Assembly (NCBI GenBank): GCA_038150265.1
Contig: JAYOTF010000043.1
Coordinates: 1 to 25,190, forward strand
Source: Deltaproteobacteria bacterium
Lineage (GTDB): Bacteria; SAR324; NAC60-12
DNA length: 25,190 nt
Direction of reading: 5' to 3'
A model generated the notes under the pieces. That model did no database searches, was not told the DNA's origin, and saw only the letters and a program-made list of their open reading frames with translations. The translations under genes and the position numbers were made by a program. Below, in pieces: positions 1 through 25,190 of this stretch (the first letter of the stretch is position 1; each line of letters opens with the position of its first letter).

Positions 1-1752
1 TTGGCAGTAAGGGTCTTGGTAGATTGTGGTTTCATTGAAAGCCCGGGACCAGTAGCCAATGCGAGCGGCCTCGTTGGAAAGCAAGCGGATCTCGTTGGCT
101 TCCCGGATCTGCATGAGCTGCTGCTCCCGCTCGGTGACATCAATGGCGACCCCGACCAGGCGGAGGCCGCGGCCCATGTCCCTGGCCTGAACGTAGTGAT
201 CAACGAAGATCTCAGTCTGGTCCGGGAGCAGCAAGTGAAAGAAGTTCTTCACGGACTCTCCCTGGAAGGCGCGCTCATTGTCACGATTCAGGCGCTCCAG
301 CTGCGCGTCTCGAGTCCGGGGGTGGAGGCGTTGGATGAAGGCGTGGTAATCAGGGCGTTCTTCCTCTCCCAGCTGGTACATCTGCCGCATGCTCTCATCC
401 CACCAGGCTTCCTCCCCGTCCCCTTGAATCCAGAACCCAATGCGCGCATGTTCGGAAATGAGTTCCAGCTGAGCCAGACGCTCCTGAGAGGCTCTGCGGA
501 GGCGGACCTCTTGAGTGATGTCCTGAGAGGTCCCCAGCATGGTCATTTTCCCCTCCAGTAGCCTGATCTGGAAGTCGGAGCGAATCACCCGGGTCCGTCC
601 GCTGGGCAGGTTCATGCGGAATTCGTAGGAGTGCGGAGTGGGCTCCGGAACCACTGCGGAAAACGCGGCTTGCAGGGAGTCGTTGATGATTTTTTCAGAG
701 TGAGGCCGGTCTTGAGGGTCAATGCGCTCCATGAAGCGCTCAAAGAGGTTCTGCTCCTGGAGGTCGACCTCAAAAAGCTCATACCCAAACGGGTCCCAGC
801 TCAAGGTGTTGTCCTCAATGTCCCACGTCCAGTAAGTCACACCAATGGCCCGGTTGGCCAACGCCTGCAGCTCAAGGGTCTCCTCCAGCTCGCGCTGCAG
901 CCTCTCCTTGCGGGTGATGTCCTGGAAGGAGGCAACGAGTGCGGACTCCCCGCTGAACTCAATGAGCTGTGCGCTCACACGAACGGTGACGACTTCCAGC
1001 TCGTTGTTGATCAGCTCCACCCGCATCTGGCTGAAGCTCCATCCCTTCTGAATCGTTTGTGTGAGGAGCTTCCGGGCACTGGGGTCGCGGTAGAAGCTGG
1101 GGGCAAAGCGCTCCAGCAGTTCCGGGACCGTGGCCTTCATCAGGTCGGCCATCTGCTGGTTCGCGTAGAGGACCTTCCCATCGGAGAGCCGCGTGATCAT
1201 CAGGGGCTCCACCGAAGAGTTGAGGATGGCCCGGTAGTTTTGGTTGAGGGTCCTCAGCTCCTGATCCTGGCGCTCCTCCTTGGTGACGTCTCGGTGAGAG
1301 GAAAGGATGAGGAGCTCGCCTTCGTGCTCAATGAGCTTGAAGTGCGAGCGGGTCACAAAGCGCTTCCCGCTGGGAGAAACCACTTCCAGCCGGTAGCCTT
1401 CCAGCTCTCCTGCTGCCTGCAACTCGGTCACCAGCTGCTTCCGGACCTCCGGATCGGGGTAAAGAGCCAGCGCGTCTCGGCCGATGAGCTGATCCACGTC
1501 AGCCCCGAATTGACGAGCCAGCGACGCGTTGGTGTAGACGATGGTCGAGTCGGACACTCGCGTGATCATCAACGCGTCCGTGGAAAAATTGAGCAATTCC
1601 TGAAAGGCCTCCCACGGAAGCTGGGGAGAAGATTGGGGGCTGGAAAAACTTGAAGATGTCAAACGAAAGGCTCCACCATAAGAACTGGTCTGTCTGTCTG
1701 TCTGTCTGTCTGTCTGTCTGTCTGTCTGTCTGTCTGTCTGTAGATTTGTCAT
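1..1752 (-). CDS. Multi-PAS/PAC domain sensor protein, 3'-partial. The output domain lies outside the window (histidine kinase or GGDEF/EAL are likely).
   Basis: Hand translation of the minus frame from ATG 1752 is stop-free to position 1 (584 codons). Four PAC-type ends are seen: 'LILSSHRDVTKEE', 'LVASFQDITRKER', 'MLGTSQDITQE', 'LVGVAIDVTEREQ'. PAS starts include 'ALMITRVSDSTIVYTN', 'PLMITRLSDGKVLYAN', 'GVTYWTWDIEDNTLSWD', 'IGFWIQG' and a fifth beginning 'IGYWSR'. No TM helix is seen. The start is uncertain: ATG 1752, TTG 1662 (GGTGGAG 8 nt upstream), or ATG 1759 after a repeat-length change. Confidence 0.9.
   Translation of the reverse strand, partial: MTNLQTDRQTDRQTDRQTDRQTSSYGGAFRLTSSSFSSPQSSPQLPWEAFQELLNFSTDALMITRVSDSTIVYTNASLARQFGADVDQLIGRDALALYPDPEVRKQLVTELQAAGELEGYRLEVVSPSGKRFVTRSHFKLIEHEGELLILSSHRDVTKEERQDQELRTLNQNYRAILNSSVEPLMITRLSDGKVLYANQQMADLMKATVPELLERFAPSFYRDPSARKLLTQTIQKGWSFSQMRVELINNELEVVTVRVSAQLIEFSGESALVASFQDITRKERLQRELEETLELQALANRAIGVTYWTWDIEDNTLSWDPFGYELFEVDLQEQNLFERFMERIDPQDRPHSEKIINDSLQAAFSAVVPEPTPHSYEFRMNLPSGRTRVIRSDFQIRLLEGKMTMLGTSQDITQEVRLRRASQERLAQLELISEHARIGFWIQGDGEEAWWDESMRQMYQLGEEERPDYHAFIQRLHPRTRDAQLERLNRDNERAFQGESVKNFFHLLLPDQTEIFVDHYVQARDMGRGLRLVGVAIDVTEREQQLMQIREANEIRLLSNEAARIGYWSRAFNETTIYQDPYCQ
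1688..1741. repeat. Perfect tetranucleotide simple sequence repeat (GTCT)13.5, read as AGAC/ACAG on the coding strand
   Basis: Read directly: 54 bp of uninterrupted period-4 repeat, encoding TDRQ repeats on the minus strand. Confidence 0.98.
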
Positions 1753-1902
1753 CAGACATGCCAGTTCTCCCTGGTGGCGGTTGAGTGAGGTGGGATGTCA
1801 GTACTTATGAATGCGGGCAGGGGCGGGAAGGGTCAAGAAAAAAATGGCCTTGGTACCAAGGTAAAAAACCCTCTTTTTGTCCACTCGGGAAAGTGTCCGG
1901 TA

Positions 1903-1931
1903 AAGATACTCTTGGAAAATCAGGGCGTCAA
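1903..1931 (-). promoter_or_regulatory. Putative sigma70 promoter for the multi-PAS gene
   Basis: Minus strand TTGACG (1931-1926), 17-nt spacer, TATCTT (1908-1903), in an AT-rich intergenic region. Confidence 0.6.
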
Positions 1932-2014
1932 GAGAAAATAAAGTTTTTGGGAAATGTCCCAATGAATTTTGGGTGCAGCTGAGGAAGTGGCAAATTTCGG
2001 GAAGGGGGAGGGCG

Positions 2015-2036
2015 CCCCACCGGTGCTCAGGTGGGG
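2015..2036 (-). terminator. Hairpin just downstream of folD (possible weak terminator)
   Basis: CCCCACC-N8-GGTGGGG inverted repeat 10 nt past the folD stop; no clean U-tract. Confidence 0.3.
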
Positions 2037-2046
2037 ACGTGAGGGG

Positions 2047-23883: not shown

Positions 23884-24509
23884 TGGGGATGGCTCTTGAG
23901 TACCTGGCAGGAGTGCTGTGTTTTGGCCTCTTTCTGTACAAGTGGGTCATCATTGCAGCGGTCCTGCTGACGTGGGTCAGCGCGGATCCGTTCAATCCGA
24001 TGGTCCGGTTCATTGCCCGGGCGACACGTCCGCTGTGGGTCTGGTGTGAAACGTGGCTACCCGTGGGGTTGGCGCACCTGAGCGCCTATGCGTCGTTGCT
24101 GGTGGTGGTGTTTGCGCAGGCCTTGCTTCCGGCGACCCTGAAGTCCGTTGGGCTTCTTGCTGAGGGGCAAGCCGGCTCGTCTCAGTTCCTGACGCAGATG
24201 GGCGGGCACGTGTTGCAAAGCTCCGGCGTTGTTCTGCAGAGCCTGCTGTTCTTCCTGATGCTGATCATGGTGGTCTGGTTCTTCCTGACCCTGGTCAACC
24301 CAGCGCTGAACAATCCGTTTGTCCGGGTGATTCACGTCCTGGCGGATCCGATGATCACGCCGATTCAGCGCTACCTTCCCCGAGCACGTGTTGACCTCTC
24401 CCCGCTGGTTGCGCTGCTGCTCTTCTTCCTGGCCAACCGGTTTGTCGTTGCTCCCTTGGCAACCTTCGGCAATGGCCTTTCCTTCCCCATCTCCCTCTGT
24501 GTGTACTGA
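23883..24509 (+). CDS. YggT-family membrane protein (two YggT repeats)
   Basis: 'LLTWVSADPFNPMVRFIARATRP' and 'NNPFVRVIHVLADPMITPIQRYLP..VDLSPL'; TGATG coupling. Confidence 0.88.
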   Translation: MGMALEYLAGVLCFGLFLYKWVIIAAVLLTWVSADPFNPMVRFIARATRPLWVWCETWLPVGLAHLSAYASLLVVVFAQALLPATLKSVGLLAEGQAGSSQFLTQMGGHVLQSSGVVLQSLLFFLMLIMVVWFFLTLVNPALNNPFVRVIHVLADPMITPIQRYLPRARVDLSPLVALLLFFLANRFVVAPLATFGNGLSFPISLCVY

Positions 24510-24512
24510 AAG

Positions 24513-24659
24513 ATGCTGTTGTTGAGTTTCCACGTGGTTGCCATTGGGACCCTCGTGGGCATTGTCTGGACCCTCGCTTACTCCTCTGGAAAAAAAGACG
24601 GCTTCGCCCAAGCTGAAAAGGAACACGCCCTCCTGAATGAGGAGCCGGCTCAGCAGTAA
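24513..24659 (+). CDS. Small single-pass membrane protein (48 aa), below the ORF-track length cutoff
   Basis: MLLLSFHVVAIGTLVGIVWTLAYSSGKKDGFAQAEKEHALLNEEPAQQ*; starts 3 nt after the yggT stop and ends 3 nt before the convergent gene's stop. Confidence 0.6.
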   Translation: MLLLSFHVVAIGTLVGIVWTLAYSSGKKDGFAQAEKEHALLNEEPAQQ

Positions 24660-24662
24660 GCG

Positions 24663-25190
24663 CTAAGGCGTTGGCTTCCGGAAGGCCCGGACTTTGGGGT
24701 TTTCCAGCTGTTGCAGGCGTTCAAACAGGGCATGGGAAACTTCTTCCAGCAACTCGCCCTTGACATCCGAATCCAGGGTCCAGCTGGCTTCCGGAAGGGA
24801 CCAGCGGATCTCCCAGCCCTGGTGACGAAACAGCAGCATCCGGTGGGACTGATCTTCGGGGCCGCTGGCCCAGACAGTGCTCTCCTGCTGACGGACCTCC
24901 AGTCGCGACACCCCAGCCAGGTCTCCCCAGTACCGGATGCTCCGGAAGACCGCTTCTTGATGGGGATCCTTTGCCAAGAACTCTTCCATCTGTTGCCCTA
25001 ACGCCAGCATCAGGCTCCGGCGCTTGCGGTGGTCGGACTGTCCCCGCAGGGTGCTCACGGGCCTCCGGATCACATCGTATTCCAGCGTGTAGAGGAGGAG
25101 CCACGCGAGGGTGAGGCCTCCCAAGTAAGCGAAGCCTCGCGTGTTGGGCCACTGAAACGCCACCACACCCAGGACGCCAAACACTCCGGA
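24663..25190 (-). CDS. C-terminal part of a membrane protein (5'-partial), family uncertain; possibly MraY/WecA-like with a soluble extension
   Basis: The frame is open to the window edge, with two hydrophobic helices followed by a soluble domain. No diagnostic motif is visible, so the family is a guess. Confidence 0.6.
   Translation of the reverse strand, partial: SGVFGVLGVVAFQWPNTRGFAYLGGLTLAWLLLYTLEYDVIRRPVSTLRGQSDHRKRRSLMLALGQQMEEFLAKDPHQEAVFRSIRYWGDLAGVSRLEVRQQESTVWASGPEDQSHRMLLFRHQGWEIRWSLPEASWTLDSDVKGELLEEVSHALFERLQQLENPKVRAFRKPTP

Follow-up and report, generated by a model that had tools for sequence, protein, structure and literature searches.

Why does a single palindromic hexamer, TCCGGA, recur so densely in this stretch of DNA? 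The window, i.e. the whole stretch of 25,190 bp that was analysed, contains exactly 96 copies, one per 262 bp. In 100 dinucleotide-preserving shuffles of the window, the word occurred 9.82 times on average (standard deviation 3.11, maximum 19) and none of the shuffles reached 96. The initial annotation had put the number at about 95 copies, with an enrichment of about 10-fold and, by eye, a GC content of about 62%; counting and computation (GC 0.619) concur with all three estimates. TCCGGC (30), TCCGGG (31) and TCCGGT (14) sum up to 75 copies (about 70 by hand) and together remain less frequent than TCCGGA, as had been claimed. On crude gene calls of our own, 85 of the 178 protein-permissive positions in the window are occupied by the hexamer, in the phases TCC-GGA (18 of 58), xTC-CGG-Axx (24 of 45) and xxT-CCG-GAx (43 of 75). 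The 90 copies located in or touching called genes cover all three codon phases. Six copies (3088, 14630, 17703, 17730, 17738 and 23661) are located outside called genes, including those that had been annotated as intergenic at 3088 and 17703-17743. An open reading frame overlapping the copy at 3088 (1969-3108) was without a Pfam match and was not picked by the gene caller.

TCCGGA sites and neighbouring genes in the window (positions of the window; strand as given)
Feature	Position	Strand	Remark
TCCGGA, 96 dispersed copies	1..25190	.	Local sample of 9,711 copies genome-wide
TCCGGA close pair, starts 1440 and 1448 (8 bp)	1440..1453	.	Example of short spacing
FolD gene	2047-2979	minus	Flanks the TCCGGA copy at 3088
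Intergenic TCCGGA copy	3088..3093	.	Between FolD gene and class-III aminotransferase gene
Class-III aminotransferase gene	3155-4540		Flanks the TCCGGA copy at 3088
HTH-protein gene	17009-17686		One flank of the intergenic trio
Intergenic TCCGGA trio, 17703, 17730 and 17738	17703..17743	.	Outside called genes; spacings 27, 8 and 35 bp
Thioredoxin-reductase-like gene	17898-18848		Other flank of the intergenic trio
AstE/AspA-like gene	21439-22344		Contains the second close pair
TCCGGA close pair, 7 bp apart	22152..22164	.	Within AstE/AspA-like gene

The excess might have been confined to the window, but it extends over the whole genome (3.39 Mb), in which TCCGGA is the commonest hexamer with 9,711 copies, one per 350 bp. 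The ratios of observed to expected counts (O/E) under Markov models of order 0 to 4 were 8.7, 7.6, 3.95, 2.39 and 1.22, respectively. The excess hence stands up to order 3 and nearly vanishes at order 4, because the pentamers TCCGG and CCGGA are pieces of TCCGGA itself; 19,422 of the 36,035 occurrences of CCGGA fall within the hexamer. Each of these pentamers is likewise over-represented 3.1-fold. The half-sites are nearly independent, with TCCGGA exceeding the frequency predicted from its flank preferences by a factor of only 1.22; this, together with the order-4 ratio, means that a bias at the level of pentamers could contribute some of the signal.

The abundance of TCCGGA is a property of the DNA that is independent of coding and without an explanation in codon usage. 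Outside genes, 1,139 copies were found versus 147 expected (7.7-fold), on gene calls whose crudeness leaves some uncalled genes in the intergenic fraction. The word is the top hexamer in coding (2.93 sites/kb) as well as in non-coding DNA (2.44 sites/kb). Within genes, 8,577 copies compare with 2,052 ± 35 in synonymous shuffles, a 4.18-fold excess to which every codon phase contributes (3.9-, 3.3- and 5.2-fold), and protein composition is insufficient to produce it, as had been supposed at the outset. The dicodon-conditioned O/E stays above 1 (1.60 and 1.34 for the two three-codon phases), and TCC-GGA accounts for 34% of all Ser-Gly codon pairs. Genome-wide, 8,576 of 20,817 protein-permissive positions (41.2%) hold TCCGGA, versus about 9.9% under the synonymous shuffle, corresponding to an odds ratio of about 6.4. 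The copies are spread uniformly, with a mean of 14.5, a variance of 16.5 and a minimum of 3 per 5-kb window; occupancy varies between genes as a binomial distribution predicts (chi2/df 1.01), without correlation to GC3 (rho 0.018). The 3-bp periodicity (0.09) was the weakest of 15 hexamers (0.08-0.69), with a similar value for the word fragment CCGGAA (0.079).

Neighbouring copies are coupled along the helix. The relative amplitude at 10.5 bp was 0.087, versus 0.015 ± 0.007 (maximum 0.035) in 200 redraws of occupancy among permissive positions with every protein fixed (z = 10); the same null accounts entirely for the 3-bp signal. The spacing period is 10.48 bp, coherent to about 300 bp, and the pair-correlation function g(d) peaks at 9, 18-20, 29-32, 41-43, 51-53, 61-63, 71-74, 84-86 and 93-96 bp. 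Across the genome, pairs 6-10 bp apart are only mildly reduced (g = 0.73), and pairs at 11-17 bp are strongly excluded (g = 0.23, 37 observed versus 160 expected). This exclusion could partly reflect the avoidance of hairpins in RNA or single-stranded DNA. Two copies of the self-complementary, GC-rich hexamer would pair with each other. Pairs of intergenic copies alone have an amplitude similar to that of all pairs (0.103, noise 0.045). In 14 control hexamers, phasing did not exceed about one to two times the noise. The unit of the signal is the full hexamer: variants in one outer base are weakly cross-phased with TCCGGA in the same register (0.023, noise 0.006), and cross-phasing was absent for CCGG cores that differ in both flanks (0.008) as well as for inner-base variants (0.009).

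The signature is shared across the lineage. Enrichment, defined as at least three times as many TCCGGA as copies of the composition-matched control AGGCCT, was found in 25 of 44 family relatives, the enriched ones having GC contents of about 42-61% and the ratio reaching about 30. The O/E is 7.7 in the congener G001 (GC 60%), 7.0 in the congener G002 and 7.8 in G012 (GC 42%), and about 1 in G003 and G009; the enrichment is missing from sister genera. Avoidance of the word relative to the control was seen in three other genomes from this order (G015, 40 vs 182; G017, 133 vs 987; G020, 37 vs 151), as expected under restriction pressure. BspEI, Kpn2I and AccIII are restriction-modification systems specific for TCCGGA, and the genome under study shows the opposite of avoidance for the same word; neither a restriction enzyme nor a cognate methyltransferase for TCCGGA was identified in it.

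Nine enriched relatives, which are not independent of one another, were tested for phase; they fall into two opposite helical registers, with one case not significant and one uninformative. Pairs at d = 30-32 plus 40-42 relate to those at 35-37 plus 45-47 as 220:126 in this genome (G000), 53:25 in G005, 57:33 in G012 and 118:93 in G002, whose phasing alone is not significant (p = 0.098). In G001 the same bands are reversed relative to G000 (58:116); one band set for G001 was picked post hoc from the same sample, a choice that leaves the a-priori bands unaffected. At d = 40-42 versus 35-37, the counts are 66:20 in G028, 37:13 in G029 and 67:20 in G026, and the register is opposite in G051 (13:59) and G050 (7:44). 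No single simple model accommodates two opposite registers easily. A register that differs between congeners points to a trans-acting reader that can change more readily than to some invariant feature of the DNA.

Individual sites are partly conserved between orthologues and yet turn over rapidly. In G002, whose 4-fold sites are 52.7% identical to those of G000, 413 of 765 TCCGGA sites of G000 (54%) were kept, versus an occupancy of 22.4% at permissive positions without TCCGGA in G000. Codons were more conserved inside than outside the hexamer (GTC, 0.93 vs 0.55; CGG, 0.77 vs 0.60; GGA, 0.63 vs 0.46; NNT, 0.62 vs 0.49). Among 1,776 shared permissive positions, the site was unique to G000 at 352 and to G002 at 226. 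Such fast turnover would also be the outcome of a neutral drive at equilibrium, and biased conversion would produce the extra conservation just as selection would.

The observations to be accounted for are thus abundance, independence of coding, uniformity, the complete hexamer as unit, phasing with exclusion, extra synonymous conservation, lineage distribution and two registers. We tentatively read TCCGGA as a word recognised by a putative symmetric DNA-binding factor, and give this reading a little less than an even chance. A weak, pervasive pressure on DNA rather than on proteins would place the word in about 41% of the permissive positions, uniformly over all genes, and would fill non-coding DNA at nearly equal density. 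Within about 300 bp, copies are favoured near whole helical turns and strongly avoided at about one and a half (11-17 bp), with the rotational preference reversed in some relatives. The symmetric, probably dimeric factor would dock on each copy and contact its neighbours along the helix; rotational coupling between two-fold symmetric sites is expected of such an arrangement. We infer a dimeric protein as the agent and selection, not a conversion drive with a physical mechanism, as the force. Selection about as strong as that behind codon bias, acting on how densely and in what arrangement the sites lie and not on single ones, may keep the word frequent. Among the alternatives offered by the initial annotation, binding by a chromosome-organising protein fits best, given the phasing along the helix and the exclusion at half turns. 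The reader might be a protein that organises the nucleoid or one that, like SeqA, is linked to methylation. In Escherichia coli, Dam and SeqA act on GATC, a short palindrome that is found all over the chromosome but is not strongly over-represented genome-wide; the SeqA dimer binds cooperatively to copies on the same helix face within a few turns. GATC/SeqA may serve as a working analogy for a phased reader of TCCGGA, with the difference that no Dam-like or SeqA-like system was identified in this genome.

Cyanobacteria have one of the closest described counterparts, HIP1 (GCGATCGC), along with alternate HIPs (Elhai 2015, PMC4390886; Xu et al. 2018, PMC5861425). HIP1 is similarly a GC-rich restriction-type palindrome and heads the over-represented words of its lineage, lies within genes in every frame as well as between them, is conserved between related genomes beyond codon conservation and missing from some sister lineages, and selection seems to act on its distribution, not on single sites. 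The initial annotation's HIP-like, lineage-wide palindrome is borne out by the genome-wide and intergenic excess, the occupancy and the enriched relatives. Unlike HIP1, an 8-bp cyanobacterial word, TCCGGA has 6 bp and belongs to a non-cyanobacterial lineage. HIPs are stated to reach about one copy per kb (PMC4390886), and a 15- to 300-fold enrichment is reported for them, versus one per 350 bp and an O/E of about 8 here; HIP1 has a reported periodicity of 18-94 kb, in a paper without the term 'helical', whereas TCCGGA shows 10.5-bp coupling, exclusion and two registers.

If Elhai's model for HIP1 applied, TCCGGA, or CCGG at its centre, would be marked by a methyltransferase, and a mismatch or very-short-patch repair that depends on this methylation would turn near-matches into the word, which would accumulate without being useful itself. 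Such a drive is an unlikely source of the pattern. It fits the restriction-type palindrome with its HIP1-like abundance, frame independence and conservation, as well as the quick turnover at high equilibrium occupancy, and every HIP has been linked to a cognate methyltransferase (Elhai 2015, PMC4390886). No cognate C5-methyltransferase was found here: PF00145 (C5-methyltransferase), PF03852 (Vsr) and PF02384 were all missing from the 97.8%-complete genome, and literature searches on TCCGGA methylation returned nothing relevant. The genome has only two DNA-methyltransferase-like genes, both with an SPPY motif, whose nearest solved relatives include N4-cytosine DNA methyltransferases. Neither tracks the enrichment. 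The RT-linked one is intact in only two of three TCCGGA-rich congeners (G000 and G001), with a fragment of just 45 residues in G002; the other is an order-wide core gene with DNA or RNA as candidate target, also present (41-52% identity) in the unenriched G003, G006, G010 and G013 and in the avoiding G017. The only D12-type match in the genome is the motif-I region of this core enzyme. TCTGGA/TCCAGA, the neighbours of the word by deamination, show no depletion (O/E 2.57), and repair site by site predicts independent sites and not helical coupling, half-turn exclusion and two registers. The orphan methyltransferase with Vsr-type repair that had been suggested initially hence lacks support.

Phased A-tracts are thought to tune chromosome mechanics in other bacteria, and intrinsically bendable or bent TCCGGA sites might likewise be phased to tune curvature, supercoiling or compaction without a dedicated reader. 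The period and its coherence suit this explanation, and both registers would have a meaning since bends add in phase and cancel in anti-phase. A helical-repeat signal of about 10-11 bp along prokaryotic chromosomes has been tied to curvature and supercoiling (PMC516772, PMC3431218, PMC4132750) or attributed to DNA packaging or supercoiling (the same papers and PMC7537859). These signals, however, concern AA/TT or other dinucleotides, and PMC4132750 makes no mention of HIP1 or palindromes; here, one GC-rich hexamer is phased, with no A/T phasing around its sites (amplitude about 0.001) and none in the 14 other hexamers. The same hexamer has opposite registers in two congeners of nearly identical GC content, and the choice of TCCGGA with an essential inner CCGG is left unexplained. 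We therefore regard mechanics alone as rather improbable.

A self-recognition mark for DNA uptake or recombination, spread by transmission bias like the DUS of Neisseria and the USS of Pasteurellaceae, appears doubtful. Similar to TCCGGA, these are lineage-specific, dense and uniform with thousands of copies, tolerate all frames and leave an imprint on coding sequences; they are, however, non-palindromic, 9-12 bp long and often paired as terminators. Uptake sequences are not known to be helically phased. Uptake bias predicts neither phasing nor the 11-17 bp exclusion nor opposite registers in congeners; six bp discriminate poorly, and no longer consensus surrounds TCCGGA (flank preferences ≤ 0.41). 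ComEC (C42) and DprA (C1) are present, but matches in 10 and 11 of 14 control genomes, respectively, including non-competent species, make them little informative. For HIP1, a methylation-dependent increase of transformation has been reported and a role in uptake proposed (PMC13756078; bioRxiv 10.1101/2024.09.10.611283).

A functionless composition effect of codon or dicodon preference and mutation bias towards TCCGG/CCGGA, with no interaction between sites, is very improbable: it agrees with the low order-4 ratio, the enriched pentamers, the nearly independent flanks and the perfectly binomial occupancy, but is contradicted by enrichment as strong outside genes as inside, by the excess over synonymous and dicodon (1.3- to 1.6-fold) expectations, by similar O/E at about 42% and 60% GC with absence from sister genera, and by a coupling against the protein-fixed null that cannot come from independent context-dependent mutation. 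For the biology of this lineage, the abundance and helical spacing of TCCGGA suggest a putative factor that would read the whole chromosome through one word.

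The window contains exactly 96 copies of TCCGGA, whereas 100 dinucleotide-preserving shuffles gave 9.8 ± 3.1 copies with a maximum of 19. Its GC content is 61.9% and the three variants TCCGGC, TCCGGG and TCCGGT together occur 75 times; given these exact values, the counts made by hand in the initial annotation were accurate. Its further statements, that the word uses all three codon phases and also lies in intergenic DNA, hold as well, with sites in every phase and six sites outside the called genes, including those listed in the table of features. The genes of the window are ordinary housekeeping genes, coding for a PAS sensor, FolD, an aminotransferase, an SDR, RpoD, ArgG, a thioredoxin-reductase-like protein and others, and a complete operon of the Bat aerotolerance type is present. 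The two longest site-free stretches of the window are probably due to chance, since the genome-wide statistics are without over-dispersion.

Features of the window, of the source genome (G000) and of related genomes
Feature	Location	Remarks
Bat aerotolerance-type operon, complete	window 7596-14609	MoxR (AAA_3) - DUF58 - DUF4381 - VWA - VWA/TPR - BatD; TCCGGA-dense, as is the remainder of the window
TCCGGA site outside called genes	window 3088	
Cluster of TCCGGA sites outside called genes	window 17703-17743	
Longest site-free stretch (~2.0 kb)	window 18343-20320	spans a cold-shock-domain gene and the start of argG
Second site-free stretch (~1.4 kb)	window 16275-17702	spans the end of an EamA gene and an HTH gene
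Reverse transcriptase RVT_1, 469 aa	within G000:C45:1404-5096 (locus L081: 35-1444)	4-bp overlap with the methyltransferase gene
Putative SPPY-type PF01555 DNA methyltransferase, 258 aa	within G000:C45:1404-5096 (locus L081: 1441-2217)	directly downstream of the reverse transcriptase
Core SPPY methyltransferase-like protein, 730 aa	G002:C16 (locus L093: 451-2643)	motif I ahead of SPPY
Core SPPY gene, copy of the source genome	G000:C51:1-1387	cut by the contig end
Tandem array, 18-bp unit	G050:C26:17965-18132	TCCGGA in each unit; adds ~8 to the d = 35-37 count

The enrichment is not restricted to the window. In the assembly of the source genome (G000; 3,393,712 bp in 87 contigs, of which the window is C43; 61.3% GC), TCCGGA occurs 9,711 times, once per 350 bp, and ranks first by count among the 4,096 hexamers (19,422 on two strands, followed by CCGGAG/CTCCGG with 10,913). 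It is also the top hexamer by its ratio of observed to expected counts (O/E) at order 0, with a value of 8.7; the runner-up among the 64 palindromic hexamers, CTGCAG, reaches 3.15. More than half of the CCGGA pentamers (19,422/36,035) sit within TCCGGA. Genome-wide O/E values at Markov orders 1, 2, 3 and 4 were 7.6, 3.95, 2.39 and 1.22. The initial annotation had named a ratio near 1 under higher-order Markov models as evidence against the signature, and the order-4 value formally approaches it, but a model of maximal order predicts TCCGGA from the word's own fragments; therefore, nulls not borrowing from the word were used, and under these the excess is retained. The tetramer CTAG is extremely scarce in G000 (O/E 0.05 at order 0 and 0.26 at order 2), and hexamers containing it are nearly absent (e.g. 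38 copies of CCTAGG and 12 of ACTAGT).

Genes were called with a simple and crude custom caller, which scores long ORFs with an iteratively trained codon model and returned 2,667 genes covering 86% of the genome. TCCGGA reaches 2.93 sites per kb within and 2.44 per kb outside these genes. It likewise outranks every other hexamer in the intergenic fraction, which takes in some uncalled genes: 1,139 sites were counted there vs ~147 expected from composition. A synonymous shuffle, in which codons were permuted within each gene so that every protein and the codon usage per gene were kept, yielded 2,052 ± 35 copies compared with 8,577 observed, a 4.18-fold excess (3.9-, 3.3- and 5.2-fold by phase), and permutation of codon order gave 1,252 copies, 6.8-fold fewer than observed. 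The excess also persists under dicodon conditioning, as shown by xxT-CCG-GAx (4,215 vs 2,627 expected, O/E 1.60) and xTC-CGG-Axx (2,339 vs 1,744 expected, O/E 1.34), the dicodons used for conditioning being themselves skewed 2.2- to 3.0-fold. In the remaining phase, TCC-GGA lies 5.9-fold above codon independence and makes up 34% of all Ser-Gly codon pairs. Altogether, 8,576 of the 20,817 permissive positions, i.e. places where the protein sequence would allow TCCGGA, are occupied by the word (41.2%; by phase 34%, 38% and 49%). As the synonymous shuffle implies an occupancy of ~9.9%, the odds ratio is ~6.4.

The word is evenly spread over the genome. The 5-kb windows (n = 619) contain on average 14.5 sites with a variance of 16.5, and the lowest has 3 sites, hence word-free islands, which would point to slowly ameliorating foreign DNA, were absent at this scale. 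Occupancy per gene conforms to a single binomial (chi2/df 1.01 in 1,809 genes) and shows no correlation with GC3 (rho 0.018). The sole positional feature is that density falls ~2-fold close to start codons, the positions of which are crude, with 1.1-1.5 sites per kb at -30 to +30 compared with 2.5-3.0 elsewhere in the genome; such a self-complementary, GC-rich word may be avoided where the ribosome binds. With this dip alone among positional features, a role in promoters or terminators was rejected. A longer motif was rejected as well: 8-mer extensions were unremarkable (NTCCGGAN, O/E 0.84-1.21 at order 6) and flank preferences were weak (at most 0.41 for any base), so that the motif is the bare hexamer.

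Neighbouring copies of TCCGGA are coupled along the DNA helix. In the spectrum of the start-to-start distance histogram, examined up to 1.2 kb, the peak at 10.5 bp matches the 3-bp coding peak in strength. Since amphipathic helices could yield a periodicity of ~10.8 nt in coding DNA, a protein-fixed null was built, in which all proteins were kept and occupancy was redrawn randomly among the permissive positions, phase by phase. This null fully reproduced the 3-bp signal, whereas the relative amplitude at 10.5 bp was 0.087 in the genome vs 0.015 ± 0.007 in the null (maximum 0.035 in 200 draws, z = 10). A period of 10.48 bp fits best; the amplitude is 0.16 at distances below 75 bp, decays to 0.05 at 225-300 bp and disappears past ~400 bp. 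Pairs located entirely outside genes have an amplitude of 0.103 (noise 0.045), similar to that of the whole genome, and 14 control hexamers stayed within about one to two times noise. The pair-correlation function g(d), the ratio of observed to null counts at distance d, has an exclusion zone at 11-17 bp (37 pairs observed vs 160 expected, g = 0.23), followed by a damped oscillation with values of up to 1.5-1.8 at the peaks and troughs in between; peaks are located at 9, 18-20, 29-32, 41-43, 51-53, 61-63, 71-74, 84-86 and 93-96 bp. The short-range exclusion may in part represent avoidance of hairpins between two self-complementary GC-rich hexamers, but such avoidance cannot account for the long-range oscillation. 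The phased unit is the entire hexamer: words that differ from TCCGGA at one outer base are weakly cross-phased with it and share its register (0.023, noise 0.006), and no cross-phasing was detected for CCGG cores with both flanks changed (0.008) or for inner-base variants (0.009). The site is two-fold symmetric, and its copies are coupled at the helical repeat to a degree that coding constraints do not explain.

The preferred helical phase between neighbours, here termed the register, was compared among relatives using in-phase (d = 30-32 and 40-42) and out-of-phase (d = 35-37 and 45-47) bands that were set a priori from the peaks and troughs of G000. Whole-genome band counts were adopted because the 400-kb spectra of G002, a congener of G000, and G012 were underpowered (noise 0.042 and 0.064, respectively). 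For five further dense genomes, including those on which genus g19 was judged, only the bands d = 40-42 and d = 35-37 were counted.

Pair counts in the in-phase and out-of-phase bands of TCCGGA-enriched genomes
Genome	Bands	In-phase : out-of-phase	Binomial p	Register
G000 (source genome)	four	220:126	5e-7	
G005	four	53:25	0.002	
G012	four	57:33	0.015	
G002 (congener)	four	118:93	0.098	leans to that of G000, not significant
G007	four	8:8		too few pairs
G001 (congener)	four	58:116	1.3e-5	inverted
G028	two	66:20		that of G000, stronger
G029	two	37:13		that of G000, stronger
G026	two	67:20		that of G000, stronger
G051	two	13:59		that of G001
G050	two	7:44		that of G001; some pairs from an 18-bp tandem repeat

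Rotational coupling was significant in eight of the ten enriched relatives tested, each in one of two registers, with G026 and G028 being non-independent as they have identical matches in common. The register differs even within genus g1, between G000 and its congener G001. In the latter (1.6 Mb; occupancy 33%, 3,310 of 10,030 permissive positions), the best period is 10.9 bp with an amplitude of 0.061, a value as high as which was found in none of 200 random-placement nulls (maximum 0.054); relative to the protein-fixed null, the amplitude (0.060) lies between the 95th percentile (0.051) and the maximum (0.072). G001 also shows the exclusion at 11-17 bp (g = 0.37) and has narrow troughs of 0.24-0.50 at 21-23, 30-32, 41-44 and 63-65 bp, bands picked post hoc, where G000 has peaks.

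The distribution of the trait was surveyed by comparing counts of TCCGGA with those of AGGCCT, a composition-matched control word. Among the first 20 relatives, both congeners were rich in TCCGGA (8,293 and 7,726 copies), members of the family ranged from rich to neutral, and three genomes of a sister family avoided it (40 vs 182, 133 vs 987 and 37 vs 151 for the control). These three genomes of the same order (G015, G017 and G020), which are small at 1.6-3.0 Mb and assembled into one to six contigs, avoid the word 4.5- to 7-fold and have 16-18 matches each to a PF01555-type query, which together suggests that their lineages are rich in restriction-modification systems and that TCCGGA is under restriction pressure there. 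In the family survey (45 genomes from 12 genera, G000 included), the ratio was at least 3 in 25 of the 44 relatives, which are statistically non-independent; the signature is a lineage-wide one, as the initial annotation had supposed. Enrichment is strong in g1, in g19 (e.g. 7,675 vs 254) and in 15 of the 18 g11 genomes (e.g. 5,247 vs 164), moderate in g4, g6 and g3, and absent from all nine g2 genomes as well as from g5, g8 and g9. The three other g11 genomes (G025, G033 and G034), only 51-57% complete, have ratios of ~1.6; they could have lost the trait, be mis-binned or form a subclade of their own. By count, TCCGGA ranks first among the hexamers of G001 (1.6 of 3.6 Mb, GC 60%, O/E 7.7), G002 (0.4 of 3.5 Mb, O/E 7.0) and G005 (200 kb, GC 52%, O/E 4.3), and by O/E it ranks first in G012 (400 kb of 3.2 Mb, GC 42%, O/E 7.8); it is unremarkable in samples of G003 (51 kb, O/E 0.8) and G009 (57 kb, O/E 1.1). 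From this distribution, the trait is heritable, varies in strength and does not depend on base composition.

Conservation of single sites was assessed with G002, of which 400 kb of 3.5 Mb were sampled and 373 kb aligned to G000, with identities of 81.4% at the nucleotide, 89% at the amino acid level and 52.7% at four-fold sites; at synonymous sites, G001 has diverged too far to be used as an outgroup. Of the 1,776 positions at which both G000 and G002 would permit the word, both carry it at 413, G000 alone at 352, G002 alone at 226 and neither at 785. A site of G000 is thus present in G002 in 54% of cases vs 22% otherwise. Where the amino acid is conserved, codons inside the word are retained more often than the same codons outside it (GTC 0.93 vs 0.55, CGG 0.77 vs 0.60, GGA 0.63 vs 0.46 and NNT 0.62 vs 0.49). 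In view of this retention and codon pattern, the force acts on the word as a unit, with a fast turnover of single sites; either selection on density and arrangement or a conversion drive would give such a pattern.

The observation is real, genome-wide and lineage-wide. Context-dependent mutation, codon bias and a site-by-site drive through repair or uptake can raise the frequency of a word, but none of them predicts the coupling; rotational coupling that extends over ~30 turns and excludes a spacing of one and a half turns therefore calls for a physical agent. This agent is most likely a putative symmetric DNA-binding factor that contacts neighbouring copies, an assignment made tentatively and a little on the doubtful side of the balance. 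It is favoured because the site has two-fold symmetry, the inner CCGG is essential with the outer bases contributing partially, and the register differs between congeners of near-equal GC content.

A drive linked to methylation is unlikely. No C5-methyltransferase (PF00145), Vsr nuclease (PF03852) or PF02384 enzyme was found in G000 (97.8% complete), while control genomes were matched, and the deamination neighbours TCTGGA/TCCAGA are not depleted (O/E 2.57 at order 0 and 1.48 at order 3). With neither the gene pair nor a depletion of T:G deamination products, a Vsr-type signature was rejected, and the interpretation offered in the initial annotation, a methyltransferase acting with Vsr-like repair, is unsupported. 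SPPY is a motif typical of N4-cytosine enzymes, and G000 has two methyltransferase-motif genes with it, on contigs C45 and C51. The former follows a reverse transcriptase gene and precedes two ORFs without family affiliation; the pair of reverse transcriptase and methyltransferase resembles a mobile or defence island. Only G000 and G001 have it intact (71% identity of the methyltransferase), and G002 has a 45-residue fragment. The core SPPY gene on C51 has a TerB-like neighbour and, in its 730-residue G002 version, codes for a protein with an N-terminal tail of ~350 residues composed of Arg/Glu/Asp/Pro-rich repeats (weak LED_rpt match); the outcome of family and structure searches is compatible with DNA as well as RNA as its target. 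It is found order-wide, at 41-52% identity, in enriched and non-enriched genomes and in one genome that avoids TCCGGA. Since neither SPPY gene follows the trait among the 20 relatives searched, tracking by a methyltransferase was rejected; the presence of neither gene explains the trait.

Intrinsic DNA mechanics is distinctly unlikely as the source of the spacing; the signal does have the period of the helix, the opposite registers occur in close relatives, and A/T periodicity around the TCCGGA sites of G000 is absent. A signal for uptake or recombination is quite improbable: ComEC and DprA are present in G000, but their presence is non-discriminating because most control genomes match too (10 and 11 of 14, respectively). 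Plain composition is very improbable, the word being first by O/E at 61.3% GC in G000 and at 42% GC in G012.

A putative factor that reads the chromosome currently accounts best for the findings. Such a symmetric factor would dock on TCCGGA and touch its neighbours along the helix, and the force would be a weak selection on the density and arrangement of sites. In its full form, which is rather doubtful, the putative factor would dock about every 350 bp and contact its helix neighbours, hence weak selection would have rewritten synonymous sites of essentially every gene; it would come in two variants, same-face and opposite-face, that are switchable between congeneric species, and would constitute a novel chromosome-organising system of a widespread uncultured family.

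Hyper-abundant palindromes have been an open problem since the discovery of HIP1, one of the highly iterated palindromes (HIPs) of cyanobacteria, and their function is debated among methylation-linked repair, chromosome structure and DNA uptake. Similar to HIPs, as far as the accessible text of two studies describes them (PMC4390886; PMC5861425), TCCGGA is a hyper-abundant, GC-rich and frame-independent palindrome, is conserved beyond codons and appears to be under selection on its distribution, not on single sites. It is the most over-represented word of its genome, first by count and by order-0 O/E, and exceeds codon usage in all coding frames and in non-coding DNA; conservation beyond codons in the sense of the accessible part of Xu et al. 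(2018; PMC5861425) is seen in the 400-kb sample of G002. In contrast to HIPs, which are 8 bp long, TCCGGA is 6 bp long, belongs to another lineage and is ~3-fold denser (HIP values from the accessible part of PMC4390886). According to the same portion of text, abundant HIPs are accompanied by a cognate methyltransferase, usually an orphan, that recognises the word or its core (Elhai 2015; PMC4390886), whereas G000 is without a recognisable cognate C5-methyltransferase. The periodicities also differ in scale: sites of HIP1 have periods of 18-94 kb, and 'helical' is absent from the accessible text reporting them (Xu et al. 2018; PMC5861425), compared with 10.5 bp for TCCGGA. In the accessible part of a paper on an 11-bp structural code of cyanobacterial genomes (PMC4132750), HIP1 and palindromes are unmentioned, and the corresponding part of Elhai (2015; PMC4390886) has no occurrence of TCCGGA. 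Searches of the openly accessible literature returned no account of over-represented TCCGGA, of its methylation in methylomes or of a palindromic hexamer phased with the helix; the papers on periodicity in bacterial genomes dealt with dinucleotides, and those on a TCCGGA-related methyltransferase with cloning. Helical coupling and two registers are unprecedented for a genome signature of the HIP kind.

The family thus represents a second lineage, unrelated to cyanobacteria, that carries a signature of the HIP kind with a different anatomy: a hexamer at three times the density of HIPs, with no C5-methyltransferase found, with helical coupling and half-turn exclusion, and with opposite registers in close relatives. 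The contrast in register, sharpest between G000 and G001, constitutes a natural experiment that renders the question testable. In practical terms, TCCGGA alone sets ~41% of synonymous choices wherever proteins have Ser-Gly, X-Pro-Asp/Glu or (Phe/Leu/Ile/Val)-Arg-X, which affects codon-usage models, k-mer-based binning, gene prediction and restriction-based handling of DNA from these organisms.
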